This document shows, piece after piece, positions 7,594 to 27,581 of a DNA stretch of 31,562 nucleotides (position 1 is the stretch's first letter; every line of letters begins with the position of its first letter). Position numbers and translations under genes: made by a program. Below the pieces are notes generated by a model. That model did not search any database, was not told the DNA's origin, and worked only from the letters and a program-made list of their open reading frames with translations. The DNA comes from a virus (taxonomy: Duplodnaviria > Heunggongvirae > Uroviricota > Caudoviricetes): positions 1 through 31,562 of the IMG/VR virus record IMGVR_UViG_2645727555_000016. One strand, 5' to 3'.

Positions 7594-10500
7594 ATGTGGT
7601 ACAGGGAAGGTACTATCACATTTACACAGGGTAGCAATACTCTGGTTGGGGCAGGGACAGCCTGGAACGTAACAGCTAATGGTGTGTTGCCGGGGATGAT
7701 CGTCATTGGCCCCGACAATAAGCTGTATGAGATCAAGCGCGTAACAAGCGATACGAATATTGTTCTCTCAGAACCTTATACCGGCGAAACTCAGTCTGAG
7801 GTTCCGTGCCGAATCATTACGACCTATGAAGGCGACTTAACACAGTTTAGCGCGCGCTTTACTGCGCTAATGTCGCGTATGTCGGCTGATTCCAAGTCCA
7901 TGCGCAGTTGGTTGACTACGCTGGATGAGGTGACAATCGAGCGTGAAGACGGTACAGAAGTGACCGTTAAGCCGCTGATACAGATTGTCAACGAGCACAA
8001 CGAAAACGTTGAGTGGTATAAAAATAACACCGACGCGATTGACGCTGCTGGCGACAAAGCTCGTGAGGCGGCGGCCAGTGCTGCCGCAGCAGCAGAAAGC
8101 GCCAATACCGCTGGAGAAAAAGCCTCTCAAGCGTCTCAAAGTGCATCCGCTGCAGAGTCCTCAAAAAGCGCGGCGGCCACCAGTGCCGGTGCCGCGAAAA
8201 CGTCTGAAACGAATGCTGCAGCGTCACAAAAATCTGCAGCCACTTCTGCATCCACCGCGACCACGAAGGCGTCAGAAGCTGCCACCTCAGCCCGGGATGC
8301 GGCGGCCTCAAAAGAGGCAGCGAAATCATCAGAAACGAGCGCAGCCTCGAGCGCCAGTAATGCCGCTTCCTCGGCAACGGCGGCAGGAAATTCCGCGAAG
8401 GCGGCAAAAACGTCCGAGACGAACGCCAGGTCTTCTGAAACGGCAGCGGGACAGAGCGCCTCGGCTGCGGCAGGCTCAAAAACAGCGGCTGCGTCGTCTG
8501 CCAGTGCCGCGTCAACAAGTGCCGGGCAGGCCTCAGCCAGTGCCACCGCCGCCGGAAAATCGGCAGAAAGTGCCGCATCGTCTGCTTCAACAGCCACAAC
8601 GAAGGCTGGCCAAGCCACTGAACAGGCCAGCGCAGCAGCGAGGTCTGCTTCCGCAGCGAAGACATCCGAAACGAACGCGAAAGCGTCGGAAACCAGCGCA
8701 GAATCCTCAAAAACGGCTGCCGCATCGTCAGCCAGTTCGGCGTCGTCATCGGCATCATCTGCGTCTGCTTCAAAAGATGAGGCGACCAGACAGGCGTCAG
8801 CAGCGAAGGGTAGCGCCACGACGGCATCCACGAAGGCGACAGAGGCAGCTGGCAGTGCGACGGCAGCAGCTCAGAGCAAAACTGCTGCTGAATCCGCTGC
8901 GACCCGTGCGGAAGCTGCTGCTGATCGTGCTGAAGAGATTGCCGGTGCAGTTGCGATGGAAGACGCAAGCCTTACAACTAAAGGTGTTGTGAAACTTAGC
9001 AGTGCTGTCGATAGCACCAGCGAATCACTGGCTGCAACTCCAAAGGCAGTTAAAGCTGCGAATGACAATGCGAATAGCCGATTGGCGAAGAGTCAGAATG
9101 GCGCTGATATCCCAGACAAGGGCCGCTTCCTGAGTAACATTAATGTTTACAGCAAAGGTGAAGTGGATAAGAAAAAGGGGATGCGAAAATACACTTTCTC
9201 TGCTCCTGCAAATGCAGTAAGCGGTAAGTGGTATCCTGTAGTCTTTCGCCGAACTGGTGGTGGCACAGATGAATTAGCCTCACGAGTGGTTATCACCACT
9301 TATTCCTCAGCTGGCGGATACGCCATGAATAATTGTGAATTTAATGGGTTTGTTATGCCTGGCGGTTGGTCTGATCGCGGTTCATATGCGGCTGGTTTTT
9401 TCTCAATATATTCTACTGCTGAGCGAGCCATACACTCGATTATCGCAAGCGTGAAAGATGATGATTTGTGTAGTGTATTTTACGTTGAGACAAGAGCATT
9501 CCCTATCCAGATTTTTGCTGAGGAAGGATTAAATGTGATTGTTCCAACGGCTGATTATGCAGTTGGTCAAACCACTTATAAGTGGGGGGCAACTGATCCT
9601 TTATCAGAAAGTACGAATGCACAGATAATTTTGGACTTTAAAAATGGACGAGGTTATTACTGTTCACATCCATTTATTTCAAGTCTTTCAGGAAATGCTG
9701 CTACAGCCACGAAATTGCAGACGGCAAGATCTATCGGTGGAGTTGTTTTCGACGGTTCTGCAAATATTAACCTTCCAGGTGTAAACACTACGGGTAATCA
9801 GAACACCACTGGTAATGCTGCAACTGCTACAAAACTTCAGACGGTAAGAAAAATATCCGGTGTTCCATTTGATGGTTCTACTGATATCACTTTAACCGCT
9901 GCGCATGTTGCCGCTTTCGCAAGAAGGGCAACAGGGTCATATGCGGATGCTGATGGTGGCGTGCCGTGGAATGCTGAATCTGGTGCTTACAATGTAAATA
10001 GAACAGGCGACAGTTATATTCTTGCCAACTTTTATACCGGAGTCGGAAGTTGCCGGACCCTGCAGATGAAGGCGCATTACAGAAATGGTGGTCTGTTCTA
10101 CCGTTCTTCAAGAGATGGCTATGGTTTTGAAAGTGGTTGGGAGCAGGTTTACACGACTGGATTTATGCCTCAGCCGGCTGATATAAACGCGCCAACCGCT
10201 GCCGCTGGATGGTTAAATAGTGGTAACGGAACGGCATTTACGACTGCTCAATTTATAACTTGGCTAAATAATCAGGGGGCATTTACAAACAAACATTGGA
10301 TCGCACGGTGCTCATGGACTTACGCCAACAATAATTATATAGACGACACTGGTTGCGGTAGGATCGATCTATCTGGTTCCGTGATTGAGGTGTTTAGTAA
10401 TAAGGCAACAAGCCACTACACTATTCGTGTTACAACGACAACAACATCGGGTCATGGTGGTGTTAACAATGCGGAATTTATTTATGTGTACAATGGAAGT

Positions 10501-11901
10501 GATTATGCACCAGGCTGGCGTCGTTCTTATAACACTAGAAACAAACCAACAGCTTCTGATGTAGGAGCATTACCGCTTTCAGGTGGCACATTATCTGGAG
10601 GGTTAACGTCTTCTGGTGAGATCGTTTCAAAATATGCAAATGGTTTCCGCATTGCCTACGGAAACTACGGATTCTTTATCCGAAACGATGGTTCAAGCAC
10701 ATACTTCATGTTGACCGATTCGGGTAACAGCCTGGGAACCTATAATAGTTTAAGGCCGCTTATCATTAACAATGCCAATGGTGCTGTTAGGATCGGTAAT
10801 GGACTCAATGTTACTGGCGGCATCAATGGTAGCTTGAACGGTAATGCTTCAACAGCTACGAAGTTGCAAACTGCTAGAAACATCAATGGTGTTAAGTTTG
10901 ATGGCTCAGGCGATATCAACATTAATACATTGGTATCTCGTGGCCGAGTTACGGCGTTAAGCGGCTCTACTCAAGGCACTGCTGGCATTCAAATGTACGA
11001 GGCGTACAACAATAACTACCCGACCATGTATGGCAACGTATTGCACATGAAAGGTGCGAGTGCTGCTGGTGAGGGAGAGTTGCTAATTGGCTGGAGTGGT
11101 ACGAGCGGTGCACATGCGCCAGTTTTCATTCGCTCACGAAGAGATACCGCAGGTTCGGCATGGTCAGCGTGGGCGCAGGTATATACCGCTAAGGATTCAA
11201 TCCCTGGTGTGAATACAACCGGTAATCAGAACACTACTGGTAATGCCGCAACCGCCACAAAATTGCAGACAGCAAGGAAAATTGCTGGTGTGGCGTTTGA
11301 TGGCTCTGCCGATATAACTTTGACTGCGGCTAACCTTAATGCTTACACGAAAACAGAGGTAACAAACCTTCTAAGTTCCTATGCAAGCAGATCATCACTG
11401 ACAGGCTATAGTGGCAACCTGGATATTATTGCTGAAACACTGGTTGTCAAATCAGGCGGTAGTGGAGGGTTTGCTATATGGGATATTGGCACAACTACTA
11501 GCGGTGCCAATATGTACATTGATCCAAACCCAGGTATCAATACAGTTTGGCGTTCAACATCTTCAAGGCGCTATAAAAAGGATATTGAAACATTACAAGA
11601 TCGATATGCTGATGAACTTTTGTCATTAAGACCTGTTTGGTATCGTTCAATTTGTCGAGGTGACCGAAAGGATTGGGGGTATTACGGCCTTATTGCTGAA
11701 GAGGTAGGTGAGATTGCCCCGCAATATGTCCATTGGCGTGAACCAACAAATAATGATTCTCCAGAAGATATTTCCTCAAATGGTATGGTCGCTGAAGGGG
11801 TGATGTATGAGCGTTTGGTTGTACCACTCATTCATCATATTCAGCAATTGACCAAAAGGGTTGAGGAGCTTGAAACGAAGTTAAATTCACCTAAAGAATA
11901 A
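7594..11901 (+). CDS. Side tail fibre protein (Stf-like) with Ala/Ser/Thr-rich low-complexity region, four dispersed tail-fibre repeat motifs and a C-terminal intramolecular chaperone (peptidase S74-like) domain
   Basis: 1435-aa ORF; low-complexity SETNAxAS-type repeats (nt about 8040..8950); motif TTKGVVKLSSAVDSTSESLAATPKAVKAAN; four copies of GNAATATKLQTAR.I.GV.FDGS.DI; C-terminal ...DWGYYGLIAEEVGEIAPQYVHW...ERLVVPLIHHIQQLTKRVEELE (about nt 11520..11901) typical of auto-cleaving chaperone domains. Confidence 0.8.
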   Translation: MWYREGTITFTQGSNTLVGAGTAWNVTANGVLPGMIVIGPDNKLYEIKRVTSDTNIVLSEPYTGETQSEVPCRIITTYEGDLTQFSARFTALMSRMSADSKSMRSWLTTLDEVTIEREDGTEVTVKPLIQIVNEHNENVEWYKNNTDAIDAAGDKAREAAASAAAAAESANTAGEKASQASQSASAAESSKSAAATSAGAAKTSETNAAASQKSAATSASTATTKASEAATSARDAAASKEAAKSSETSAASSASNAASSATAAGNSAKAAKTSETNARSSETAAGQSASAAAGSKTAAASSASAASTSAGQASASATAAGKSAESAASSASTATTKAGQATEQASAAARSASAAKTSETNAKASETSAESSKTAAASSASSASSSASSASASKDEATRQASAAKGSATTASTKATEAAGSATAAAQSKTAAESAATRAEAAADRAEEIAGAVAMEDASLTTKGVVKLSSAVDSTSESLAATPKAVKAANDNANSRLAKSQNGADIPDKGRFLSNINVYSKGEVDKKKGMRKYTFSAPANAVSGKWYPVVFRRTGGGTDELASRVVITTYSSAGGYAMNNCEFNGFVMPGGWSDRGSYAAGFFSIYSTAERAIHSIIASVKDDDLCSVFYVETRAFPIQIFAEEGLNVIVPTADYAVGQTTYKWGATDPLSESTNAQIILDFKNGRGYYCSHPFISSLSGNAATATKLQTARSIGGVVFDGSANINLPGVNTTGNQNTTGNAATATKLQTVRKISGVPFDGSTDITLTAAHVAAFARRATGSYADADGGVPWNAESGAYNVNRTGDSYILANFYTGVGSCRTLQMKAHYRNGGLFYRSSRDGYGFESGWEQVYTTGFMPQPADINAPTAAAGWLNSGNGTAFTTAQFITWLNNQGAFTNKHWIARCSWTYANNNYIDDTGCGRIDLSGSVIEVFSNKATSHYTIRVTTTTTSGHGGVNNAEFIYVYNGSDYAPGWRRSYNTRNKPTASDVGALPLSGGTLSGGLTSSGEIVSKYANGFRIAYGNYGFFIRNDGSSTYFMLTDSGNSLGTYNSLRPLIINNANGAVRIGNGLNVTGGINGSLNGNASTATKLQTARNINGVKFDGSGDININTLVSRGRVTALSGSTQGTAGIQMYEAYNNNYPTMYGNVLHMKGASAAGEGELLIGWSGTSGAHAPVFIRSRRDTAGSAWSAWAQVYTAKDSIPGVNTTGNQNTTGNAATATKLQTARKIAGVAFDGSADITLTAANLNAYTKTEVTNLLSSYASRSSLTGYSGNLDIIAETLVVKSGGSGGFAIWDIGTTTSGANMYIDPNPGINTVWRSTSSRRYKKDIETLQDRYADELLSLRPVWYRSICRGDRKDWGYYGLIAEEVGEIAPQYVHWREPTNNDSPEDISSNGMVAEGVMYERLVVPLIHHIQQLTKRVEELETKLNSPKE

Positions 11902-14429: not shown

Positions 14430-14586
14430 GACGCAGGCTCCAGGCGTGCTATTCTGCGATGCTGCAAATCCTATCTATGTGAGTAGAGAGGATTTTATGA
14501 CTGAGGAAACGGAGCGACAGTTGCTTATCCACAATACGATAGGTGAAAGGCTGTGTGAGTGGGGGGCACCTGAACTGAGTCGATGA
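14350..14586 (+). CDS. Rz1-like outer-membrane lipoprotein spanin (o-spanin) candidate, starting inside the Rz-like gene in another frame
   Basis: Internal start of ORF 14272..14586: MKRLMKCGKKMPLVFIASCLINGC with lipobox LINGC; overlapping genes are the classic Rz/Rz1 arrangement; exact start (14341/14350/14362/14380) uncertain. Confidence 0.4.
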   Translation: MKRLMKCGKKMPLVFIASCLINGCVIKTQAPGVLFCDAANPIYVSREDFMTEETERQLLIHNTIGERLCEWGAPELSR

Positions 14587-14795
14587 TTGATCTCAGTTTA
14601 CCTTTTATCCTAAAGATGGCATCTTCACTCATATACACGCCTGTTCACTCAAGCTCATGTTGAATCATTTAGTAATTTGATGTAGATTTATTAGGCATCC
14701 ACGTAAGTGGGCACATACAGGCTACGCATTCTCGTAGCCTTCAACCCCGAGAGGGGTGCCGCAATGACACTTGTGTTAACGGCTAAGGTGGATAT

Positions 14796-15215
14796 ATGCT
14801 AAATTATCATGACAATACGCGTTCTATGCAGACGATCCGCACCAATACTGCGGTTATCGACAGCTTTCCTATGCGTATTCACAACAGTGAAGACGCAGTA
14901 GAAGTGCGACGTATGTTGTGCCGTGAATCAGCTAACCGCCAGCACTTCATCGTCACTTTTAAGAGCGATGTGGCGCGTGCCGAAAAGGTCTCTAATTCTA
15001 CGTCACTGGTTAAACCGTTGGCCGAGGTTGTCGCTAACGGTAAACGAACCTCTTTTGTTTTAGATGTTGCTGAACAATATCCTGACTTGAAGTGTTTAGA
15101 TCGTGATATTTCTTCACGAATCAAACAAGTTGTAGAGTCTTTTATGAAGAAATTCTGTAAAATCGATGATATGGAACCATCAACGGCACAGAATACTTCA
15201 TGGCACCATCTCTAA
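14796..15215 (+). CDS. Hypothetical protein
   Basis: 139-aa ORF after a structured intergenic region; overlaps the start of the next ORF. Confidence 0.35.
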   Translation: MLNYHDNTRSMQTIRTNTAVIDSFPMRIHNSEDAVEVRRMLCRESANRQHFIVTFKSDVARAEKVSNSTSLVKPLAEVVANGKRTSFVLDVAEQYPDLKCLDRDISSRIKQVVESFMKKFCKIDDMEPSTAQNTSWHHL

Positions 15216-15973
15216 TTGGTCAGGCGAACAGATTAATCCCTGAAATAGAAGACTACAGCAAGGTCTTGTCTGAAATGCCGAGAGCGACGAGAATTATCGC
15301 TCTCGGTGAGTTCTATTTTATCTCCCGAGGTTTCGATCTAATTCGATTTACCGAATACGAGCTTGTTGATTCGGCCTATGAACGCTGTATTGTTGGCGAG
15401 TGTCTTGAGTCATGTGATCCTGATTACCAAGAGCAGGAAGTTAAGCGACTCAAACGTGCTGGTTACACACCTCTTGAGATAGGAGCAGAAATTGAATCCT
15501 ACAAGTTGCATGTGGGGCAGCCAGTCCAAACAGTCTTCCGCGTGGCCTACTGCGAGTTTCCAATCAAGGATAAATCTGGAGTAAAAGTCAGCGCCAAGCA
15601 GATTAGAGGGGTTTTTACTCATGCTGATTATATGGGATTAGGCATCGCAAGTTTTGCTTACCTTTATCTCGTAGATAAGTATCAGTACTTGGTTTGCGAT
15701 ACGTTACAGACGATAAAAGGCGCAACTCTTTGGGCTGTGAGTATGCGCAAACATGGACTGGTCGAAATTTACGATACGAAGAACGAAAATTTTATAGAGG
15801 AATTGGGTGAGGATGCCTGTGGCGTAAGTGGTTTTATTCCGTGGGATATCGGTAAGTCTGACGGAGGCCAGATGCGAAGACGTGAAGAGTGGGGGACTAA
15901 TAAAATCAATCTCACCCCAGGTGCTTGTACTCATATAGTGAACATTCTGAGTAAACGATCTATGAATCAATAA
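15200..15973 (+). CDS. Hypothetical protein (weak GNAT-like G-x-G-x-A motif; start uncertain)
   Basis: 257-aa ORF followed by a strong intrinsic terminator; segment HADYMGLGIASFAYLYLV loosely resembles an acetyl-CoA binding motif; not confirmed. Confidence 0.35.
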   Translation: MAPSLIGQANRLIPEIEDYSKVLSEMPRATRIIALGEFYFISRGFDLIRFTEYELVDSAYERCIVGECLESCDPDYQEQEVKRLKRAGYTPLEIGAEIESYKLHVGQPVQTVFRVAYCEFPIKDKSGVKVSAKQIRGVFTHADYMGLGIASFAYLYLVDKYQYLVCDTLQTIKGATLWAVSMRKHGLVEIYDTKNENFIEELGEDACGVSGFIPWDIGKSDGGQMRRREEWGTNKINLTPGACTHIVNILSKRSMNQ

Positions 15974-15995
15974 ACCCGCTACGGCGGGTTTTTTG
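15974..15995 (+). terminator. Rho-independent terminator (CCCGC-TACG-GCGGG followed by TTTTTTG)
   Basis: Perfect GC-rich 5-bp stem, 4-nt loop and 6-T tract directly after the stop codon of ORF 15200..15973. Confidence 0.7.
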
Positions 15996-16121
15996 TTATT
16001 AAGCCCACCTATGTACCTATCATTAAACCTTTACACCGCAGCCGTAGGCATTTAGGCTATATCACATATAAGAAAACAAGTTGTTTCAGACGATAATTAT
16101 ATACGCAAAGGGAACTCTCCA

Positions 16122-16790
16122 ATGACCAAGATCTTTGTGGTTGGCGGCACAAAGGGCGGGCCTGGCAAATCCACCGTTGCCCAGCAAATTGCCGTTTGCC
16201 TGAAAGTCAAAAAGAAGAAGAAGGTTTATATCACTGATATAGATATTCAGCGCACGACAACAAGCTGGTGTGAAGACCGTCGACAGAACGAAGACCTTGA
16301 GCTGATTCCTTTTGCATACGTTCAGGATGACATCATTAAGCACCTAAAATCGCTTCAGGGTAGAGCTGAGTTTGTAGTGGTAGATGCTGGTGGCTTTGAC
16401 TCCGAAATTCAGCGACAAGCGATGCTGATGGCCGACGTTATCATTATCCCGCTTCGTCCTAAGCGTCGTGATTTGAAATCTCTGCGTGACATTGATCCTA
16501 TTATCGACAATGTTCGTAATGTAAACGATAAAGTGAAGGTCCGCGCGGTCATGAACCAGTGCCCGGCTTTGCCATCACAAGTGTCTCGCATTCTGGCGGC
16601 TAAAGAGATTGTTGAGACGTTTGGCATCGAGTCTGCGCCAGTCAATCTATATAACCGCAACGTCTATGATGATGCGGAAGAGTCTGGTCGTTCTATCTTT
16701 GAAATGACCGGTAGCGAGCGCGACAAAAAGGCGGAAGCCGAGTTTGAAGAATTTGTAGATTATCTGTTGAGTCTGGAGGAAGAAGAATAA
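16122..16790 (+). CDS. parA: ParA-family partition ATPase (small type Ib, ParF-like)
   Basis: Deviant Walker A box GGTKGGPGKST (KGGxxK[ST]) at the N-terminus; 222 aa; followed by a small DNA-binding-type gene. Confidence 0.7.
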   Translation: MTKIFVVGGTKGGPGKSTVAQQIAVCLKVKKKKKVYITDIDIQRTTTSWCEDRRQNEDLELIPFAYVQDDIIKHLKSLQGRAEFVVVDAGGFDSEIQRQAMLMADVIIIPLRPKRRDLKSLRDIDPIIDNVRNVNDKVKVRAVMNQCPALPSQVSRILAAKEIVETFGIESAPVNLYNRNVYDDAEESGRSIFEMTGSERDKKAEAEFEEFVDYLLSLEEEE

Positions 16791-17149
16791 TGTCCATGAA
16801 AATGGGTGACCTAGCAAAGCGCAAAGAGCCTGATGCACCGGCTAAGAACACAACTCCTTTGCGCCAACCAGTCAGACCACAGGGACGCCCGACTCGTGGC
16901 AAAGAGAAAATTAAAAGCCGCACAATGTCACTGGAAGACGAATACTTCGAACTGCTGGAGATGATGAAGTTCATCCCTCGCTTCGAGAAATTCACCCGTT
17001 CTGACGTGATTCGCGCAGCCATTTTCCATCTGGCAGAGAAGTCACCGCAGGAAATCGAGGACATCGTGAAACTTAACGAGGCAATCACAGCTGCCGATGT
17101 CACGATGCGTACCGATGAAATTAAACGAGAGTTGATGAAGAAAGGTTGA
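16790..17149 (+). CDS. ParG/ParB-like centromere-binding protein candidate (partner of ParA)
   Basis: 119 aa; start overlaps the parA stop (ATGA); basic Pro/Arg-rich N-terminal tail and helical C-terminus, as in RHH-type small partition proteins. Confidence 0.45.
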   Translation: MSMKMGDLAKRKEPDAPAKNTTPLRQPVRPQGRPTRGKEKIKSRTMSLEDEYFELLEMMKFIPRFEKFTRSDVIRAAIFHLAEKSPQEIEDIVKLNEAITAADVTMRTDEIKRELMKKG

Positions 17150-17193
17150 TAAGAGAAGGCGTGATTAGACGCCTTCTCTTAAAAGGTATATTT

Positions 17194-17949
17194 ATGCTTT
17201 ACAAATATGTTGGAAGTAGCGTCCCGGAAGACACAATAAAGTATTTAAAGTATTACTTAGAAGATGGGAAAATTCGAGCAACTCGTCCGAATGATTTCAA
17301 CGATCCTGCCGAGTTTAAAGTTAATTTTGATTATGATGCTGATATAGACGCCATTAAGAAAAGATTTTTTGAGCTTTGGCCTAATCATCACAATGATGAA
17401 TTTGAACGCTGGTTATTGAGTCAAACAGAACATAGTCGCAGTTTTGATAACTATATGATTAGAACAACTTTTCTGCAGTGTCGGGGAGTTATTTGTTTGA
17501 CAAAAAGACCAGATAATTATCTTATGTGGTCGCATTATGCGCATTCTCACTCTGGTTTTTGCATCGGATTTGATGATGGTTTTATAAATGCGTTTGATGA
17601 TGTTTTTTTTGTTCGCGGTGAGGTCAAATATTCCTCTGATGTTCCGGTTGTAAATTTTTTTACCGACTCAGCTAAAGAGATTGCAGCGGCTCTTTGCCTA
17701 AATAAAAGCGATGTCTGGGAATATGAAGAGGAGGTTAGAATCGTAACCGAGAATTGTGGCGTGAAATTATTTGATAAATCCTTAATTAAGGAAATAACAA
17801 TAGGTTGTAAGGCTAGCAGTCAACTTCAAAATTATGTTCATCAACTATTTGATTCAGGTATCGAAATCTACAAAATGAAGTGCCCTCCAGGATCGTATAA
17901 GCTGGAAAAAATAAGATTAGAGAAAGATACTGATTTTCTTGGATACTAG
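17194..17949 (+). CDS. DUF2971-family protein (domain recurrent in defence islands), AT-rich
   Basis: N-terminal LYKYVGSS and NDFNDPAEF, central LMWSHYAHSHSGFCIGFD; these match the DUF2971 signatures as recalled (LYKY start, FNDP.E, MWSHYA); low-GC coding sequence relative to neighbours. Confidence 0.5.
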   Translation: MLYKYVGSSVPEDTIKYLKYYLEDGKIRATRPNDFNDPAEFKVNFDYDADIDAIKKRFFELWPNHHNDEFERWLLSQTEHSRSFDNYMIRTTFLQCRGVICLTKRPDNYLMWSHYAHSHSGFCIGFDDGFINAFDDVFFVRGEVKYSSDVPVVNFFTDSAKEIAAALCLNKSDVWEYEEEVRIVTENCGVKLFDKSLIKEITIGCKASSQLQNYVHQLFDSGIEIYKMKCPPGSYKLEKIRLEKDTDFLGY

Positions 17950-17971
17950 TATTGGTAGTATCAACAATTAT

Positions 17972-18034
17972 GACCTGCTTCCGTATATAATAAGTATCTT
18001 AGTATATATATATATACGGAAGCAGGTCTTTTAA
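17972..18034. terminator. Long perfect 18-bp inverted repeat (GACCTGCTTCCGTATATA / TATATACGGAAGCAGGTC) with an AT-rich alternating TA loop, followed by TTTT; bidirectional terminator or recombination/origin-like hairpin
   Basis: Arms 17972..17989 and 18011..18028 are exact reverse complements; loop contains a (TA)n run; T-tract follows. Confidence 0.55.
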
Positions 18035-18109
18035 AAGACACCACCAGAACAACTCCCTTCCGTTTCCACTTCCAAAAACTGCCACCAGTCGCTATCATCC
18101 GCTCATTGT

Positions 18110-18132
18110 GATAAGTAAGTAACTACCTACCA
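18110..18132 (+). promoter_or_regulatory. Conserved intergenic motif GATAAGTAAGTAACTACCTACCA (instance 3), immediately upstream of the 18143 start
   Basis: 13-nt core identical to instance 1 except the last base; followed by a CTACC segment as in instances 2 and 4. Confidence 0.45.
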
Positions 18133-18142
18133 GGTGAGCCAC

Positions 18143-18883
18143 ATGAGCCAAATCTTTTTCGATACCATCGACAACGACCAGTACGACTTCATGACAGAGT
18201 GGAATACCGCTGTTATGGACAAGTGGGTCGCTGAAAACATTGGTTTGTCGCGCTGTAAAGACGAGGCTGAACTCTTCGAGACGAAGTGGTTTGATTACCG
18301 TGACATGCATCCTCTCATGGCCACCTGTCTTTTTACGGAGGCATACAAACGTCAGTACTCAAATATCATGCTGACGCACGGTCGCGAACACTTTGAAACA
18401 GCTCCGTTCACCACCGGGTTAAAACGCCTGCCTTATCAGGAGTTGTCGACTGCCAATAAAACGTCGCTATGGAAAGCACGCCAGTTTGCGGATCGCTATT
18501 GCTGCTCATACGACTACTTTATCTCCACCGTTCTTTCCGCAGCTGCACGACGGCTGTGGGACAAGCTGCCGCGCCCACAGCATTTGTGGCAGCCAGAACT
18601 GATTGAGATATTTGAAGAGAAATTAGCCAGACGCGCAACAACCCGTCTGGATGACTCTCTTGTTAGCTTTAAGCATATGGGAGACATGCAGTTCAACCCG
18701 ATTCAGGAAAGCTATTTTGAGTGGATTCTGGAGCGTTTGCGCACCATCCCTCGCAGCAAGCGCATACGCGCAATTTTCTCCGCTATCTGGCTAATGGAAA
18801 TCGTTCCAGAGCGCCTTATTTCCGCCCACTTTCCAGAAGAACTGGAAGAAGCACGGCGGTTTATTGATCCCCTATCTAATTAA
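18143..18883 (+). CDS. Hypothetical protein at the head of the replication module (possible helicase loader or initiator; unsupported)
   Basis: ORF 18134..18883 (GTG) with a likely ATG start at 18143; no recognisable motif; precedes the DnaB-like helicase. Confidence 0.4.
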   Translation: MSQIFFDTIDNDQYDFMTEWNTAVMDKWVAENIGLSRCKDEAELFETKWFDYRDMHPLMATCLFTEAYKRQYSNIMLTHGREHFETAPFTTGLKRLPYQELSTANKTSLWKARQFADRYCCSYDYFISTVLSAAARRLWDKLPRPQHLWQPELIEIFEEKLARRATTRLDDSLVSFKHMGDMQFNPIQESYFEWILERLRTIPRSKRIRAIFSAIWLMEIVPERLISAHFPEELEEARRFIDPLSN

Positions 18884-18926
18884 CTAATACTAGAAAACAA
18901 TTTGTTTAAAAAACAAAGGAAAGCAC

Positions 18927-20267
18927 ATGACCGAACTTTGCCATACAGGACGCGGGCTGTCCGAAGAGTTTGATGAAGATTTCCAGAACAGACTGACGGC
19001 ATATTTTTGTCGTGATCACGAGTTTCTTACTCGTGCGGGAGATCTGGTTGTGCCTAGCCAATTTGCCAATGCGGCCAATGCCATATTGGTTAATATGGTT
19101 TCGGGCTATTACCGTATGTACAAGAGCGCGCCCTCTTCATCTGCAATTCTGGATATGCTTAAGCGTGCGAAACGCGATAAGACTATCCGTGAGGAACTAT
19201 TCGCCGATGTTGTTGCTGCGTTTAAGCGCATTCTTGCAGAAAAATTGTCCGATACCTCGTACATGGTTGACCAGGTATCAACCTTCGCAAAAAGTGTAGC
19301 GTTTGATGATGCTCTGATTAAGGCTGCTGAACTGAAAGAGAAGGGCGACTTTCAGGGGGCGATGGCAATCATGGCCAAGGTTCAGCAGATTGGATCGAAC
19401 GAAGCGACCGGAATCTATGACTACTACACCTCCGCAAGTGAGCGATTGAAAGCGCGTGAATATGAGGCTTCAGAGGAGTATGTGCCAAACAGCATTACAA
19501 CTGGACTCCCTCTGCTTGATAGATTGCTGTACCAAAAAGGCTGGGCAAAGCGCGAAATGGTGCTCTTCATGGGGTTCGCTAAATCCGGTAAATCGACCGC
19601 AATGGGTGAGTTTTCCATAAACGCAACGCTTGCTGGCTACAATGTTCTGTATCTCTCGCTGGAGGTTCACACCACCATTTTATCCGACCGTTTTGATGCA
19701 AGATTGTCGGAGACAGAAATGTCCAAGCTGGTGGAACGGCGCGATGAGGTTCATCGTAAGTTGGCAGAGTTGGGAGCCACGAAGGGGATTGGTAGTTTGT
19801 GGGTGGTTGAGCGTCCGTCAGGAAGTATGTCACCGGCAGATCTGGACCGTATGCTTAACAGCATGAAAGCCAACGGCATGGTACCTGACATGGTTGTTGT
19901 CGACTACGCAGATTTGATGCGTGCCAGTTATGACCTTCGTGATGATCGCGCCAACATTCGTAGCATCTACACCGATTTACGTGCTCTTTATGACAAGCAT
20001 AATGTTGCTGGGATCACGGCATCGCAGACAAACCGTGAAGGTGGCGCGTCAGAAGTTGCCACAATGATGCACGCTGCCGACAACATCGAAAAAGTACGTA
20101 TTGCTGACCTGGTAATAACGATCAACAAAACCGAAGAAGAAGAAGCGAAAGGAGAGGCTCGTCTCTACTTTGCTGGTTCACGTAACCAGCAGGGAGGGAT
20201 CAGCATTCGCGTTAAACAAAACCTCGAACAAATGCGCTTCATTGAGCGAATCTTAGACGTTACCTAA
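18927..20267 (+). CDS. DnaB-like replicative DNA helicase (RecA-fold C-terminal ATPase)
   Basis: Walker A GFAKSGKST, Walker B-like MVVVDYADLM; 446 aa; N-terminal helical domain plus C-terminal ATPase. Confidence 0.6.
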   Translation: MTELCHTGRGLSEEFDEDFQNRLTAYFCRDHEFLTRAGDLVVPSQFANAANAILVNMVSGYYRMYKSAPSSSAILDMLKRAKRDKTIREELFADVVAAFKRILAEKLSDTSYMVDQVSTFAKSVAFDDALIKAAELKEKGDFQGAMAIMAKVQQIGSNEATGIYDYYTSASERLKAREYEASEEYVPNSITTGLPLLDRLLYQKGWAKREMVLFMGFAKSGKSTAMGEFSINATLAGYNVLYLSLEVHTTILSDRFDARLSETEMSKLVERRDEVHRKLAELGATKGIGSLWVVERPSGSMSPADLDRMLNSMKANGMVPDMVVVDYADLMRASYDLRDDRANIRSIYTDLRALYDKHNVAGITASQTNREGGASEVATMMHAADNIEKVRIADLVITINKTEEEEAKGEARLYFAGSRNQQGGISIRVKQNLEQMRFIERILDVT

Positions 20268-20414
20268 AAAATAAGCGTGGAGAACACCTCCACGCTTGAT
20301 TCATTGGTGAAACAACTTTTCTTTTGCCAAACCACAAAAGAAAAACACATGAGCCTTTATGTTATATCAACATTTAGGTTGGTCACAATATTGCCTATTA
20401 AAGGTGGAATTATC

Positions 20415-21530
20415 GTGAGCGAGCTGAAAGAGCTAATTACCGAATTAGATTTTGAACAATGGTTGGACACTGAAGGTATCGTTTATCGACGTGGAGGCGT
20501 GAGTGCTCGCGGTCGTGAAGTGAATATCAAGGAGTGTCCGGTATGTGGCAGCTCCAACTGGAAGGTATATTTCAATCTGACCAGTGGCGTCGGCAAATGC
20601 TTTGCTGGTGATCATCCCGAAGAGATTCAGTTCAATAAGCTGGTCTTCCTCAAGCACTACAGCGGTAAATCACGACGACAGTTCGAGGAATATGTGCAGA
20701 ACGCGCTGATCTCACAAGGATGGGCGCCGAAGAAGGAAGAGGTCGTGCTGGCCAGCAAGGTTGAACTCGAAGGGCCAGTAGCTCTCCCTCGACATTACGA
20801 ACTCCCCATTGACGGTCGTCTTCCTGATTATCTGGTGGAGCGCCATATCTCCCCGGATCTGGCCAAATACTTTGATCTGCGTTACTGCGTCGAAGGCAAG
20901 CACGCATACGTCGATCCGTACACAGACCAGGTCAAAGGGCAGGTGTTTGATATGCGCATCCTGATACCGGTTTACGATCTGGATGGCGTGATGAAGACCT
21001 TCCAGGGGCGTGACATTACCGGTGCAGCAGAACGCCGTTATCTCTTCCCTATGCAGCTGCCGGCGTCGGGTAAGTTTCTCTACAACGGCCACAACGCAGT
21101 CGGGAAACAAACAGTCGTTGTGTGTGAAGGGGCATTTGACGTAATGGGCGTGAAGCGAGCCATCTTCGACGAAAAGACGCTGAGGGATTATGTAGAGCCA
21201 ATTGGCACGTTCGGGATGCACTTGTCCGGAAATATGAATGAGGACGCTGAAGATCAGTTGGGCGCGTTCCTGACGCTCAAGGCGCGTGGATTACGCAACG
21301 TCATCATGATGTGGGATAGCGAGAAGCAAGCGATCCGCAACACCATGTCGGCGGCCAAACGCCTCACCAGCATCGGACTAAATGTCAAAGTGGCCTGTCT
21401 GGGCGAAGAAGGTCTCGACCCCGGCGACGCGACGCCAGAGCAGATCCTTAAAGCCTATTATCGTGCCAAGCCTTACTCCAAACAGCTGGAGTTAAAATGC
21501 AAAGTGCTCGGTATCAAGTCACTCGTGTAG
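20415..21530 (+). CDS. DNA primase (zinc-ribbon plus TOPRIM)
   Basis: ORF 20277..21530; probable GTG start at 20415 after AAGGTGG; zinc-binding CPVCGSSNW...KCFAGDH; TOPRIM-like VVVCEGAFDVMG and MWDSE. Confidence 0.5.
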   Translation: MSELKELITELDFEQWLDTEGIVYRRGGVSARGREVNIKECPVCGSSNWKVYFNLTSGVGKCFAGDHPEEIQFNKLVFLKHYSGKSRRQFEEYVQNALISQGWAPKKEEVVLASKVELEGPVALPRHYELPIDGRLPDYLVERHISPDLAKYFDLRYCVEGKHAYVDPYTDQVKGQVFDMRILIPVYDLDGVMKTFQGRDITGAAERRYLFPMQLPASGKFLYNGHNAVGKQTVVVCEGAFDVMGVKRAIFDEKTLRDYVEPIGTFGMHLSGNMNEDAEDQLGAFLTLKARGLRNVIMMWDSEKQAIRNTMSAAKRLTSIGLNVKVACLGEEGLDPGDATPEQILKAYYRAKPYSKQLELKCKVLGIKSLV

Positions 21531-21531
21531 T

Positions 21532-22584
21532 TTAAGTTGTGGGAGACAGACGGTTCAGGACAAACGCAGCGATATTATTTAGTGCTATATTTAGCAAACT
21601 TGCATCATATGTTTGGTCGTTATCCTTAGGTTTAAAATTGCTGATACTGACTGTCTCACTGTGCTCATTTTCATAGAAACGTTTACTGCTTGAATCTAGG
21701 CGTTTGAGGACGTAAATTTGCCCAAATTCAATCCACTCACCTTCACCATTGAGTCCGCTCCCTGTTTTGACTGAGATGAAGTACTTTGCCAGCTTGGTTG
21801 TAATGCAGTCTTCATTTTTTTCTATGCAAACCTTAATGCCGGCGGCTTTCAAACTACGATAAATGCTGTTTGGATATGCCCCACTATAGATTTCGCTGCT
21901 TTCAATGATAATGACGTCGTATTCTTCCTTTGGCTCAATAGATAAAGCTTCAGGCTCCAAATCATCCTTGTGAAAAATAAATCCTAAAAGACGCTCAAGT
22001 TCATCTGTTAATTTGAACATGGGGTTCGCTTGGATCTCGCCAGCCCTGTCTTCGTAGACGAGACCCGAGGTTATGAGCTTATTTAGCGATCTCAGAGCCA
22101 TTCCACTTTTTTGTGATGTGAGGCTAACTTGGGCTAATACAGTTGATTTATAGCCTTTTATTGGCGAGCTTGTTGTGATGTAAAGTTTGCGCGCATATTC
22201 AATATCAAAGCAGGTTAACCCACTCAGTATGTGGATAAAAAATAGTTTTTCATCGTCGTTAAGGCTGCTGCGGGCTAGGCTTACCGTCAAGCGAATGTAG
22301 TATTCTGTTTTCTTGTCTTCATCATCAAGCACGAGCTTTTTGACTAACGCCGAAAAGTGTTCTCTTGAGATATCGACCTCATCGTCGCAAATTTCACCAA
22401 TGCCCATAATGTAACGGTTGAATCGATCACGACAAGTCGTCGCATTTATCTCTGAGAACAACGTGAACATTTTTTCCGCTGCCTCAATATGAGGTCCAAC
22501 AAGCGGTATAGATTTGGCAAACGCCAAACCAGTTTCTTTCAATACCTTCCTGTGTTGCATCACGTTTTTGGACAACGTTGTCAT
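21532..22584 (-). CDS. Hypothetical protein on the opposite strand, AT-rich; candidate moron (possible abortive-infection or defence cargo)
   Basis: 350-aa ORF, one of only two convincing minus-strand genes in the window; visibly lower GC than flanks; sits between the primase and a promoter-like AT-rich spacer. Confidence 0.5.
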   Translation of the reverse strand: MTTLSKNVMQHRKVLKETGLAFAKSIPLVGPHIEAAEKMFTLFSEINATTCRDRFNRYIMGIGEICDDEVDISREHFSALVKKLVLDDEDKKTEYYIRLTVSLARSSLNDDEKLFFIHILSGLTCFDIEYARKLYITTSSPIKGYKSTVLAQVSLTSQKSGMALRSLNKLITSGLVYEDRAGEIQANPMFKLTDELERLLGFIFHKDDLEPEALSIEPKEEYDVIIIESSEIYSGAYPNSIYRSLKAAGIKVCIEKNEDCITTKLAKYFISVKTGSGLNGEGEWIEFGQIYVLKRLDSSSKRFYENEHSETVSISNFKPKDNDQTYDASLLNIALNNIAAFVLNRLSPTT

Positions 22585-22703
22585 AGACCTAAGCCTTGTG
22601 TGTTTAACGTATTAGTTAAGTGAAATCATATAGAAGTGACCTGACAGCTACAACTGGACAAGATTAAGAGCATTTTTTATAAACGAAACTAAACGCCTAC
22701 ATT

Positions 22704-22724
22704 GATAAGTAGATACATACTTAT
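22704..22724 (+). promoter_or_regulatory. Palindromic GATAAGTA...TACTTAT site (ATAAGTA-N7-TACTTAT) in the divergent intergenic region between the minus-strand ORF and gene 22768
   Basis: Inverted repeat of the ATAAGTA half-site read directly; overlaps a TTGATA -35-like hexamer. Confidence 0.35.
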
Positions 22725-22767
22725 ATTTCTGTAAGAATATGCTCGACAAAGGAATTGAGGAACCTTT

Positions 22768-23562
22768 ATGAAAGCAGATATTCAGAAGTCCGTTACCGAA
22801 ATCATCGACAAATCAGGCGTAGAAATTGATACAGAAGAGCGCCAGAAGATTATCGATGAGGCGATCCAGACTGCGCTGGAGCACATCGCCACGTCTGTGA
22901 GCACCGCACCTCTTTCGGAAGGCTCGAAATACATGCGGGTCTGGGTTCGTTTTGGGGAGTCCCCGGAGCTGCCTGGTGTTAAACAGAAACGCGCGGCACT
23001 CGTGGCGTTCACTCGCAAAATGAAGGACGCAACGGTCGAAGTACGCGCCGGTGCATGGTACGACGGTCGCGTTGTCTACACCAATCAGGCAGTGTGCGAT
23101 GAAGGTGAACGGTTTGAGGAAATTGTCGACGCGACTCTTCGCGCGATCAAAGGCAGGGCTGGCGTAGAGGATGATCCTTCTATCGCGGCGTTCCTGAGCA
23201 TTGTCGAACTGCCTGAAGTTACCGAACGCGTTACAGATCTGACAACCCCACCTGGTTTGCTGGAGTTGGTGGTCAGTGGCGATACCAAAAAAGCCGTTGA
23301 GCGCATTCGTGAGGTGGAATACGGCATCATCTGCGATATGTGCCGCAGCGACTTAGACCTGGTGCGCATCATTGTCGACGCGGGTCAGACATGTGACGGT
23401 GTGCTCGCCAGTTTTGCAGGGCAGGTGGCACGCCTGGCCAACGAGCTGCCGATGATTAAACAGGAGGCAAAATCCTACGCCGTCCACCATGCCAACGATT
23501 TACTGGAACCATACCGGTTCGAAGCCGCTCAGGACAAAATGACTGGCTGGGCTACCTGGTAA
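22768..23562 (+). CDS. Hypothetical protein
   Basis: 264-aa ORF with AGGAA-type RBS; followed by an intrinsic terminator. Confidence 0.45.
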   Translation: MKADIQKSVTEIIDKSGVEIDTEERQKIIDEAIQTALEHIATSVSTAPLSEGSKYMRVWVRFGESPELPGVKQKRAALVAFTRKMKDATVEVRAGAWYDGRVVYTNQAVCDEGERFEEIVDATLRAIKGRAGVEDDPSIAAFLSIVELPEVTERVTDLTTPPGLLELVVSGDTKKAVERIREVEYGIICDMCRSDLDLVRIIVDAGQTCDGVLASFAGQVARLANELPMIKQEAKSYAVHHANDLLEPYRFEAAQDKMTGWATW

Positions 23563-27052: not shown

Positions 27053-27127
27053 GATGGTGTAGCTCAGCGGTAGAGCAGTTGGCTGTTAACCAACTGGTCG
27101 GTGGTTCGAATCCACCCACCATCGCCA
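27053..27127 (+). tRNA. tRNA-Asn (anticodon GTT)
   Basis: Manual fold: acceptor GATGGTG/CACCATC, D-stem GCTC/GAGC, anticodon stem GTTGG/CCAAC with loop CTGTTAA, T-arm GGTGG-TTCGAAT-CCACC, discriminator G, encoded CCA. Confidence 0.75.
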
Positions 27128-27132
27128 ATTTA

Positions 27133-27219
27133 GGGGAGTTAGTCCGTAGAGGTAGCGGTGTAGACTGTAAATCTACTGTCATGGCGACTCGGGTGGTTCG
27201 ACTCCATCACTCCCCACCA
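27133..27219 (+). tRNA. tRNA-Tyr (anticodon GTA), class II with long variable arm
   Basis: Acceptor GGGGAGT/ACTCCCC, anticodon stem GTAGA/TCTAC with loop CTGTAAA, variable arm with GTC/GAC stem, T-arm GGTGG-TTCGACT-CCATC, encoded CCA; D-arm is non-canonical. Confidence 0.55.
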
Positions 27220-27223
27220 AATT

Positions 27224-27299
27224 GCCGGTTTAGCTCAGTTGGTAGAGCAGTCGCTTTGTAAGCGAATGGCCAGCGGTTCAAGTCCGTTAACCGGCACCA
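27224..27299 (+). tRNA. tRNA-Thr (anticodon TGT)
   Basis: Acceptor GCCGGTT/AACCGGC, D-stem GCTC/GAGC, anticodon stem GTCGC/GCGAA (one mismatch) with loop TTTGTAA, T-arm AGCGG-TTCAAGT-CCGTT, encoded CCA. Confidence 0.7.
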
Positions 27300-27304
27300 A
27301 CATA

Positions 27305-27395
27305 ATATTGAGAACATTGGCGTAACGGGGTCATATCCCAATCTATGAATAAATGTTGCGTTGCCGCGTGACAACCAGTGTTCTCAACATTGTGG
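27305..27395. repeat. Hairpin element B: imperfect inverted repeat (ATATTGAGAACATTGG / CCAGTGTTCTCAACATT) between tRNA-Thr and tRNA-Ser
   Basis: Two mismatches in a 16-17-bp repeat; shares the CTCAAC..TTGTG arm signature with elements A and C. Confidence 0.5.
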
Positions 27396-27494
27396 TGAAT
27401 GCACAGGCTGATGTGCCGCAACTACAGTAGTGCGCGCTTTGCGGGGCTTGCTACAACCCTGTGTCGGAGATCAGCACCGACCACCACAATCACT

Positions 27495-27581
27495 GGAGAG
27501 TAGGGAGCATGGTGCTCAAGCGGTCTTGAAAACCGTCCCATTGCGCAAGCGATGATGGTTCGATTCCATTACTCTCCGCCA
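27495..27581 (+). tRNA. tRNA-Ser (anticodon TGA), class II with long variable arm
   Basis: Acceptor GGAGAGT/ACTCTCC, anticodon stem GCGGT/ACCGT with loop CTTGAAA, long variable arm, T-arm GATGG-TTCGATT-CCATT, discriminator G, encoded CCA; D-arm slightly irregular. Confidence 0.55.

Follow-up and report, generated by a model that had tools for sequence, protein, structure and literature searches.

Among the described systems closest to the gene studied here is Aristaios, a protein of 316 amino acids (aa) encoded by the Lactococcus plasmid pUCCL641 (pUCCL641_199; Grafakou et al. 2024, PMC11381338), which as a single gene gives an abortive-infection phenotype and prevents phage transcription or protein production (PMC11381338, PMC13064643, PMC12967558). 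A published survey assigns its domain, DUF2971, to the H-Y-E clade, in the neighbourhood of DarT and AbiGi, and describes a conserved Tyr plus ExE (PMC12522546); the Aristaios paper independently reached the same fold (PMC11381338). DarT is a small single-domain enzyme dependent on nicotinamide adenine dinucleotide (NAD+) that ADP-ribosylates DNA and acts in phage defence. With regard to genome organisation, the P2 old/tin and P4 psu-int hotspots were described by Rousset et al. 2022 (PMC9122126), and the systems DS-33 and DS-37 have been reported in Salmonella SSU5-like elements. Here, we analysed a 31,562-nt stretch of viral DNA (IMG/VR record IMGVR_UViG_2645727555_000016; hereafter the window), which is an SSU5-type phage-plasmid with 97.8% identity to Escherichia phage Cyrano over positions 16016-20998, and followed up an open reading frame (ORF) at 17194..17949 on the + strand that encodes a DUF2971 protein of 251 aa with a predicted ADP-ribosyltransferase-like fold. 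We read it as a stand-alone DUF2971 gene carried as exchangeable cargo, with a predicted role in anti-phage defence or exclusion to which we assign a probability of roughly 0.6; it is likely a phage-defence gene of a known kind and not a new type of system.

The initial annotation of the window had assigned the gene to DUF2971 on the basis of short motifs, and we confirmed this identity. In the hidden Markov model (HMM) search that had been proposed as a check, the translated product (MLYKY...FNDPAEF...MWSHYAHSHSGFCIGFD) matched Pfam DUF2971 (PF11185) with an E-value of 3.7e-10 and a score of 41.4 bits (cutoff 22), the alignment spanning the whole profile (positions 1-89 of 89) and residues 111-183 of the protein. 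All 72 aligned homologues matched PF11185 as well, and the quoted motifs fall on invariant or near-invariant columns of their alignment (K4 Y5; F35 N36 D37 P38; W112 S113 H114 Y115, H119 and G121 F122 C123 G125). Strict invariance was found for W112, S113, H114, Y115, H119, G121, Y177, E178 and R182, while F122, C123, G125 and E180 were conserved in at least 90% of the homologues; K171, W175 and the block Y177 E178 x E180 x R182 complete the conserved set. The protein also gave a full-length match to the PADLOC single-gene candidate PDC-S31 (PDLC04990; E 1.1e-40; residues 1-239 aligned to positions 8-255 of the 259-position profile), whose single-gene architecture it shares, and matched PHROG 1762, a group of unassigned function; a search of NCBIfam returned no family. 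The earlier proposal of an undescribed system was not upheld, since this full-length PDC-S31 match and a validated family member already exist, and the accompanying remark that the domain has no established mechanism was overstated in view of the published Aristaios phenotype and the DarT-like ADP-ribosyltransferase prediction in print (PMC12522546).

Because the 72 homologues begin at MLYKY, the true start is, as read from these alignments, the ATG at 17194, which is preceded at a distance of 6 nt by a ribosome-binding site read from the sequence (AAGG; 17184..17187, + strand). On the same ground we discarded the TTG at 17146, which gives the mechanically longest ORF and is the start annotated in the Cyrano record; it is further disfavoured by the fact that translation would run through a 13-bp hairpin. 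From the ATG, the overlap with the ParG-like gene that had been noted initially disappears: the ParG-like stop codon lies at 17147-17149 and is followed by a 44-nt spacer that contains the 13-bp hairpin and the AAGG site. Judged by these features, the gene is real, intact and a member of Pfam DUF2971. It is also AT-rich as first described: its GC content is 35.6%, whereas the window averages 46.6% and the neighbouring genes have 47-49%. When 756-nt segments were sampled across the 31,562 nt, a GC content equal to or below that of the gene was found in only 0.5% of them, and the segment with the minimum overlaps the gene.

A defence role is the best reading of this gene because its slot alternates with recognised defence genes and because its homologues are found in lysogenic-conversion slots. 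The slot was delimited by blastn against 12 related loci and by junction sequences, which defined a variable cargo cassette of ~820 bp (17150..17971; 35.3% GC) with a single ORF between two hairpins. This cassette is the segment that varies among E. coli relatives otherwise 96-99% identical, and the breakpoints in the 12 loci lie at 17147-17151 on the left, at the ParG-like stop codon, and at 17964-17972 on the right, at the foot of a long hairpin. Homology to the relatives thus breaks and resumes where the initial annotation had placed the gene, between the partition (par) and replication (rep) modules. Of 5,426 complete E. coli genomes, 264 carry the par module; the exact cassette was present in 21 of these, in every case on a plasmid and at 99% identity or more, and at least 80% of the par-to-rep query was covered in only 26 of 733 PLSDB plasmid records. 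The comparison with related genomes that had been suggested therefore shows variable presence and, because only 21 of the 264 carry the cassette, the gene is accessory and not core, i.e. low-GC cargo (a "moron") of a mobile element, as had been supposed. One of the 21 copies (H150; NZ_JBQRBK010000004.1, 31006-32603) has its cassette match split by IS1A and is the sole disrupted copy.

We observed at least five cargo types in the par-rep slot of relatives. Most E. coli relatives carry in the identical slot a homologue of PD-T4-3/CMoRE, a validated type IV restriction enzyme against phage DNA containing hydroxymethylcytosine (hmC; PMC12923530). This 254-aa reverse-strand protein, found in PhiR41_1, pM-199-4197 and many E. 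coli records, matches PADLOC PD-T4-3 (1.5e-23), Pfam LEM-3 GIY-YIG and the CMoRE structure PDB 9u7u (2e-15), and was recovered from 178 PLSDB records, of which 135 share at least 99% identity with one another; as a GIY-YIG nuclease encoded on the opposite strand and unrelated to DUF2971, it bears on slot use only. Another cargo is a KAP-family nucleoside triphosphatase (NTPase) of 564-587 aa that matches the PADLOC candidate PDC-S49. An uncharacterised reverse-strand protein of ~351 aa (152 PLSDB records; no match in Pfam, NCBIfam or PADLOC) stands alone in the slot of some E. coli and Klebsiella elements, and in pHCM2 and a Cronobacter plasmid it shares the slot with a convergent DUF2971 gene (reverse strand at 6418-7473 of locus L010, which is pHCM2, 6386-7441 of L009, 2611-3669 of L006 and 5601-6659 of L012), and it could be an independent cargo or a DUF2971 partner. 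The slot of SSU5 holds DUF2971 plus two extra small genes. Finally, a distant DUF2971 subfamily, 26-27% identical to the window protein and encoded on the strand opposite to par, lies directly beside the par module in two Klebsiella records (NZ_CP040026.1, 51323-51973; vB_Kpn_1825-KPC53, 22610-23260), so that the slot has captured DUF2971 genes at least twice; this subfamily also occurs in the Enterobacter plasmids H122-H127, where its presence was recorded, slot placement having been established for the two Klebsiella records.

Overall, the borders of the slot are fixed in the 12 relatives, its cargo is mutually exclusive and unrelated, and this cargo includes a homologue of a validated defence enzyme, so that by gene content the par-rep slot behaves as a defence hotspot of SSU5-type phage-plasmids. 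It resembles the P2 and P4 hotspots in being a fixed slot between conserved genes that takes up mutually exclusive, low-GC, horizontally exchanged defence genes, and differs from them in being located, within an SSU5-type phage-plasmid, where the partition operon gives way to the replication module. No description of the par-rep slot as a hotspot was found in the literature searched, the text of Rousset et al. (PMC9122126) makes no mention of fun(Z) or DUF2971, and DUF2971 is not among the newly implicated DUFs listed in the text of the DefensePredictor paper. We consider the slot as a hotspot to be a fresher point than the DUF2971 gene itself.

The turnover of alleles within the slot was compared between the window and the SSU5, Enterobacter, Klebsiella, Cronobacter and pHCM2 elements. 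The flanking proteins (ParA, ParG-like, first replication protein, DnaB) of these elements are 82-98% identical to those of the window, and the DUF2971 proteins only 37-51%; the three motif blocks are the conserved parts of the slot alleles, while residues ~51-100 and the C-terminal part are the least conserved. In PLSDB, 26 records reach an identity of 95% or above and no allele falls in the range from 60% to 95%, and the closest relative of the window protein, at 56%, occupies the same slot of another SSU5-like element. In a neighbour-joining tree (no bootstrap), the slot alleles fall into at least three clades, mixed with alleles of P2 prophages and chromosomal islands. Because the window allele is low in GC and the SSU5, Enterobacter and Klebsiella alleles have 48% GC, its composition points to import of the window allele and not to divergence in place.

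Homologues also occur outside the slot. An E. coli homologue (36% identical) is found in P2-like prophages, flanked by the tail-fibre assembly gene and the sheath gene, the position at which the P2 record has fun(Z), annotated as 'blocks growth of T5; nonessential; lysogenic conversion'. A Shewanella homologue (44%) adjoins the CI-type repressor of a lambdoid prophage, and a Serratia homologue (50%) belongs to an integrase island with CbtA/CbeA, anti-restriction and RadC genes. PDC-S31 is also matched by the P2-prophage and Serratia-island homologues and by the slot alleles of SSU5, Enterobacter and Klebsiella. These contexts are all of the type in which lysogen-expressed exclusion genes are commonly found.

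An alternative explanation is that the protein serves the element itself, as a counter-defence or host-takeover enzyme that modifies host proteins or defences during lytic growth or establishment. The gene does lie in a phage genome, and phage ADP-ribosyltransferases that reprogram the host are known, such as Alt, ModA and ModB of T4, which modify host proteins. The fold evidence is silent on the target, and anti-defence genes have been reported in SSU5-like elements (bioRxiv 10.1101/2025.09.12.675607). We nevertheless regard this explanation as quite improbable: a type IV restriction homologue and a KAP NTPase candidate in the same slot make no sense as counter-defence, homologues sit at lysogeny-expressed loci (the fun(Z) position of P2, beside a CI repressor) and in non-phage islands, the validated member Aristaios is a plasmid-borne defence gene (PMC11381338), and the window gene lies just downstream of the par operon, on the same strand, and not in a lytic operon. 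The initial annotation had left defence and anti-defence cargo side by side; defence stands as the best reading of the two, and anti-defence is the less likely.

The structure prediction that had been recommended yielded a confident AlphaFold2 model from the 72-sequence alignment, with a predicted local distance difference test score (pLDDT) of 95.7 and a predicted template modelling score (pTM) of 0.89. Its nearest solved structures, at modest scores, were the nucleic-acid ADP-ribosyltransferases DarT and Tpt1, with DarT entries 7omu, 7yk3, 7omv and 8baq as the best matches (10-14% identity), and the model has the core fold of ADP-ribosyltransferases. On this model we are highly confident that the DUF2971 protein has an ADP-ribosyltransferase-like fold, and DarT is a plausible model for its chemistry; NAD+-dependent ADP-ribosylation of nucleic acid as that chemistry is put forward tentatively. 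The window protein differs from DarT by a large helical insert and an extra C-terminal part and has no HMM match to it, only PDC-S31 models being matched among PADLOC profiles at E<=1. A DarG macrodomain antitoxin was not found either: the DUF2971 ORF is the only one in the cassette, and the neighbours are ParA, ParG-like and replication genes. The protein thus resembles DarT in fold only, and is neither a member of the DarT family nor part of a DarTG system.

The likeness to DarT toxins in the nearest solved structures raises the question of a plasmid-addiction toxin whose antitoxin, either an RNA or the product of a gene at another locus, has escaped recognition, an idea to which the adjoining stability module would also lend itself, as would the KacT/GNAT toxin-antitoxin pair present in the slot upstream of parA in Cyrano and pM-199-4197. 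It is very unlikely. The 820-bp cassette has no second ORF and no macrodomain, no PADLOC DarT model matched at E<=1, the cassette is present in ~8% of par-carrying E. coli elements and is freely replaced by unrelated genes, and Aristaios proved active when cloned alone on a high-copy vector (PMC11381338). An antitoxin-free DarT-like enzyme, if true, raises the question of how self-modification is prevented. A more general proposal, namely a widespread class of antitoxin-free, DarT-like nucleic-acid ADP-ribosyltransferases serving as both phage sensor and effector in one protein, together with the par-rep slot as an unrecognised hotspot, appears doubtful to us at present.

The preferred reading of the window protein, a lysogen-expressed single-protein exclusion or abortive-infection effector, was compared to Aristaios. 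Both are single genes on extrachromosomal elements, with DUF2971 (PF11185) as the sole domain and no antitoxin; Aristaios comes from another phylum and another type of element, is 65 residues longer, and has demonstrated activity. The two proteins were likened by domain and description only, and by this analogy the window protein probably works like Aristaios. In a lysogen, the DUF2971 protein would be made at a low level, perhaps via read-through from the par operon, which is suggested by the distance of only 12 nt between the upstream hairpin and the ATG and by the lack of a promoter match. The protein would be harmless until a competing phage infects and activates it, and could then use NAD+ to ADP-ribosylate DNA, RNA or an expression factor. 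Phage gene expression would be shut off in the infected cell, giving abortive infection or exclusion in the manner of Aristaios. In such a scheme, recognition would most likely involve the helical insert (~aa 51-100), which is poorly conserved, together with the C-terminal part.

Several points weigh against this reading. Experiments concern only family members that are not close relatives of the window protein. Aristaios and the window protein are linked only through a Pfam domain whose family is very large: it has 12,875 representatives (50%-identity clusters) at E<=1e-3, against 15 cluster representatives at E<=1e-30 in the close subfamily of the window protein. PDC-S31 received no mention in the literature searched and is a bioinformatic candidate only. 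A consensus scan of 16000-19000 gave no + strand sigma-70 promoter match, which makes the expression route a guess, and the cassette has no antitoxin, macrodomain or other partner by which self-damage could be avoided. On the side of the fold, Foldseek returned no significant match against the PDB (nor against BFVD), a profile search of PDB sequences gave 0 matches at E<=10, and the 72 homologues matched no DarT, AbiGi, Tox-ART or other ADP-ribosyltransferase family in Pfam at E<=10. The motif-I His is reportedly poorly conserved in the DUF2971 family (PMC12522546). The invariance of Y115, E178 and R182 and the conservation of E180 at 90% or more match the published 'conserved Tyr plus ExE' at the level of the alignment, and a placement of these residues at an NAD+ site would be putative.

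A further alternative is a protein that is not an ADP-ribosyltransferase, in which N-D-P, S-H-Y...H and K...W-Y-E-x-E-x-R form another active site, for example that of a nuclease or phosphotransferase, or belong to a non-catalytic binder, with a defence function still possible. The lack of an HMM-level link to any ADP-ribosyltransferase family and the invariant H114, H119 and K171, which lie outside the classic H-Y-E description, fit such a protein; we consider it unlikely, as two independent published analyses arrived at the same fold (PMC12522546, PMC11381338) and the conserved Tyr and ExE fit the superfamily pattern.

A phage phenotype is on record for one strain with an element of this kind. 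When K. pneumoniae Kp1604 was cured of its plasmid p2, the plating efficiency of three lytic phages rose 10- to 100-fold (PMC8969562), and pKp1604-pro (L008), a plasmid record of Kp1604 that we equate with p2, has in its par-rep slot a DUF2971 allele of 50% identity. This observation counts in favour of the defence reading, with the limit that the effect is that of curing the whole plasmid and has been assigned to no gene.

SSU5-type phage-plasmids are common in clinical Enterobacteriaceae; they turned up here in 264 complete E. coli genomes and 733 PLSDB records, and S. Typhi has one in pHCM2. When SSU5-group elements were surveyed with DefenseFinder, PD-T4-3 and others were reported in E. 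coli/Shigella, and pHCM2-like elements had 'no detected defence systems' (bioRxiv 10.1101/2025.09.12.675607). The par-rep slot of pHCM2 (L010, 5593-6348) holds a DUF2971 allele with 46% identity to the window protein, a candidate defence gene that DefenseFinder may miss. If the hotspot reading is true, pHCM2-type elements scored as defence-free would have a functional anti-phage gene, and elements with such a slot would shape which phages can infect their hosts, with a bearing on phage therapy and on competition between mobile elements. For DUF2971, a very large family with one validated member, a member from E. coli is a convenient entry point, as standard coliphage panels can be used.

The slot is bordered by hairpins of different origin. 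A 13-bp perfect hairpin (17150..17181, + strand; free energy dG -21.9 kcal/mol, z = -5.9) directly follows the ParG-like stop codon and is itself followed by T-rich CTCTT; nearly every cargo type has its own distinct hairpin at this point, and the one in the window is a probable weak terminator or attenuator of the par operon. On the right border lies a hairpin with a TCTTTT run (17972..18033, + strand), in which an 18-bp perfect stem with arms of 18 nt at 17972-17989 and 18011-18028, 100% complementary, encloses an AT-rich loop of 21 nt (RNA dG -32.4 kcal/mol, z = -9.2). The initial annotation had listed this unusually long perfect hairpin with the gene; the structure exists as described and is a backbone element, not the gene's own. 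Its GC-rich stem (CCTGCTTC-GTATA ... TATAC-GAAGCAGG) is kept in 11 of the 11 relatives compared, most of which also have the T run, and because it is kept regardless of cargo, we assign it to the backbone and rejected it as a terminator of the DUF2971 gene or as a system-specific element. Variation in the stem is mainly C-to-U on the 5' arm, which gives U.G pairs only in RNA of the + strand. From this pattern, 17972-18033 is a probable intrinsic + strand terminator that closes the par-plus-cargo unit and insulates the replication module. The consensus terminator scan of 16000-19000 missed both hairpins, whose form does not fit its loop and tail rules.

Records related to the window include SSU5, PhiR41_1 and numerous 'plasmids' of ~110 kb from E. 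coli, Klebsiella, Enterobacter and Salmonella. In the backbone to the left of the slot, a ParA/MipZ-type partition ATPase (16122..16790, + strand; Pfam MipZ, AAA_31, CbiA and ParA) is 82-91% identical in relatives and is followed by its ParG-like partner of 119 aa (16790..17149, + strand; phrog_5111, no Pfam match), which is 92-98% identical in relatives and whose stop codon forms the left slot border. This protein corresponds to CYRAN_29 of Cyrano, annotated there as 'RelE/ParE putative toxin'; since its position and its 92-98% conservation beside ParA fit a ParG-like centromere-binding protein, that label is probably wrong. To the right, the replication module begins with a gene for a 249-aa protein of unassigned function (18134..18883, + strand; phrog_2500), after which come a DnaB-like helicase (18927-20267) and a primase (20277-21530).

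Other parts of the element vary as well. A second variable slot lies at 14586-16121, between the lysis genes and parA, where the window has a + strand pair of uncharacterised genes (139 aa and 257 aa; phrog_2594 and phrog_3307, no Pfam or PADLOC match) that is also found in PhiR41_1, SSU5 and several plasmids. In its place, Cyrano and pM-199-4197 carry the KacT/GNAT toxin with a DUF1778 antitoxin, a Cronobacter plasmid has a gene for a HEPN-annotated protein of 401 aa, and a reverse ORF of ~183 aa is found in pHCM2 and a Klebsiella plasmid. What looks like a third cargo slot is found at 21532-22584, where a 350-aa ORF on the - strand (GC content 0.40-0.43; no Pfam or PADLOC match) directly follows the primase; at this position Cyrano has no gene, SSU5 a different 321-aa reverse gene, and another relative a Sel1/TPR protein. 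The 350-aa ORF was considered as a copy of the 351-aa par-rep cargo of relatives, and this was rejected as the two proteins proved unrelated on comparison. Within the ORF at 7594-11901, which encodes a 1435-aa tail-fibre protein, the segment 8001-9000 has 60% GC compared to the mean of 46.6% and an AT skew of 0.29-0.35, and its long spurious ORFs on both strands suggest a compositionally odd or repetitive segment. Lastly, four transfer RNA genes (Asn-GTT, Tyr-GTA, Thr-TGT and Ser-TGA) are clustered at 27053-27581; in the corresponding region, the Cyrano record annotates only three (Asn, Thr and Ser).

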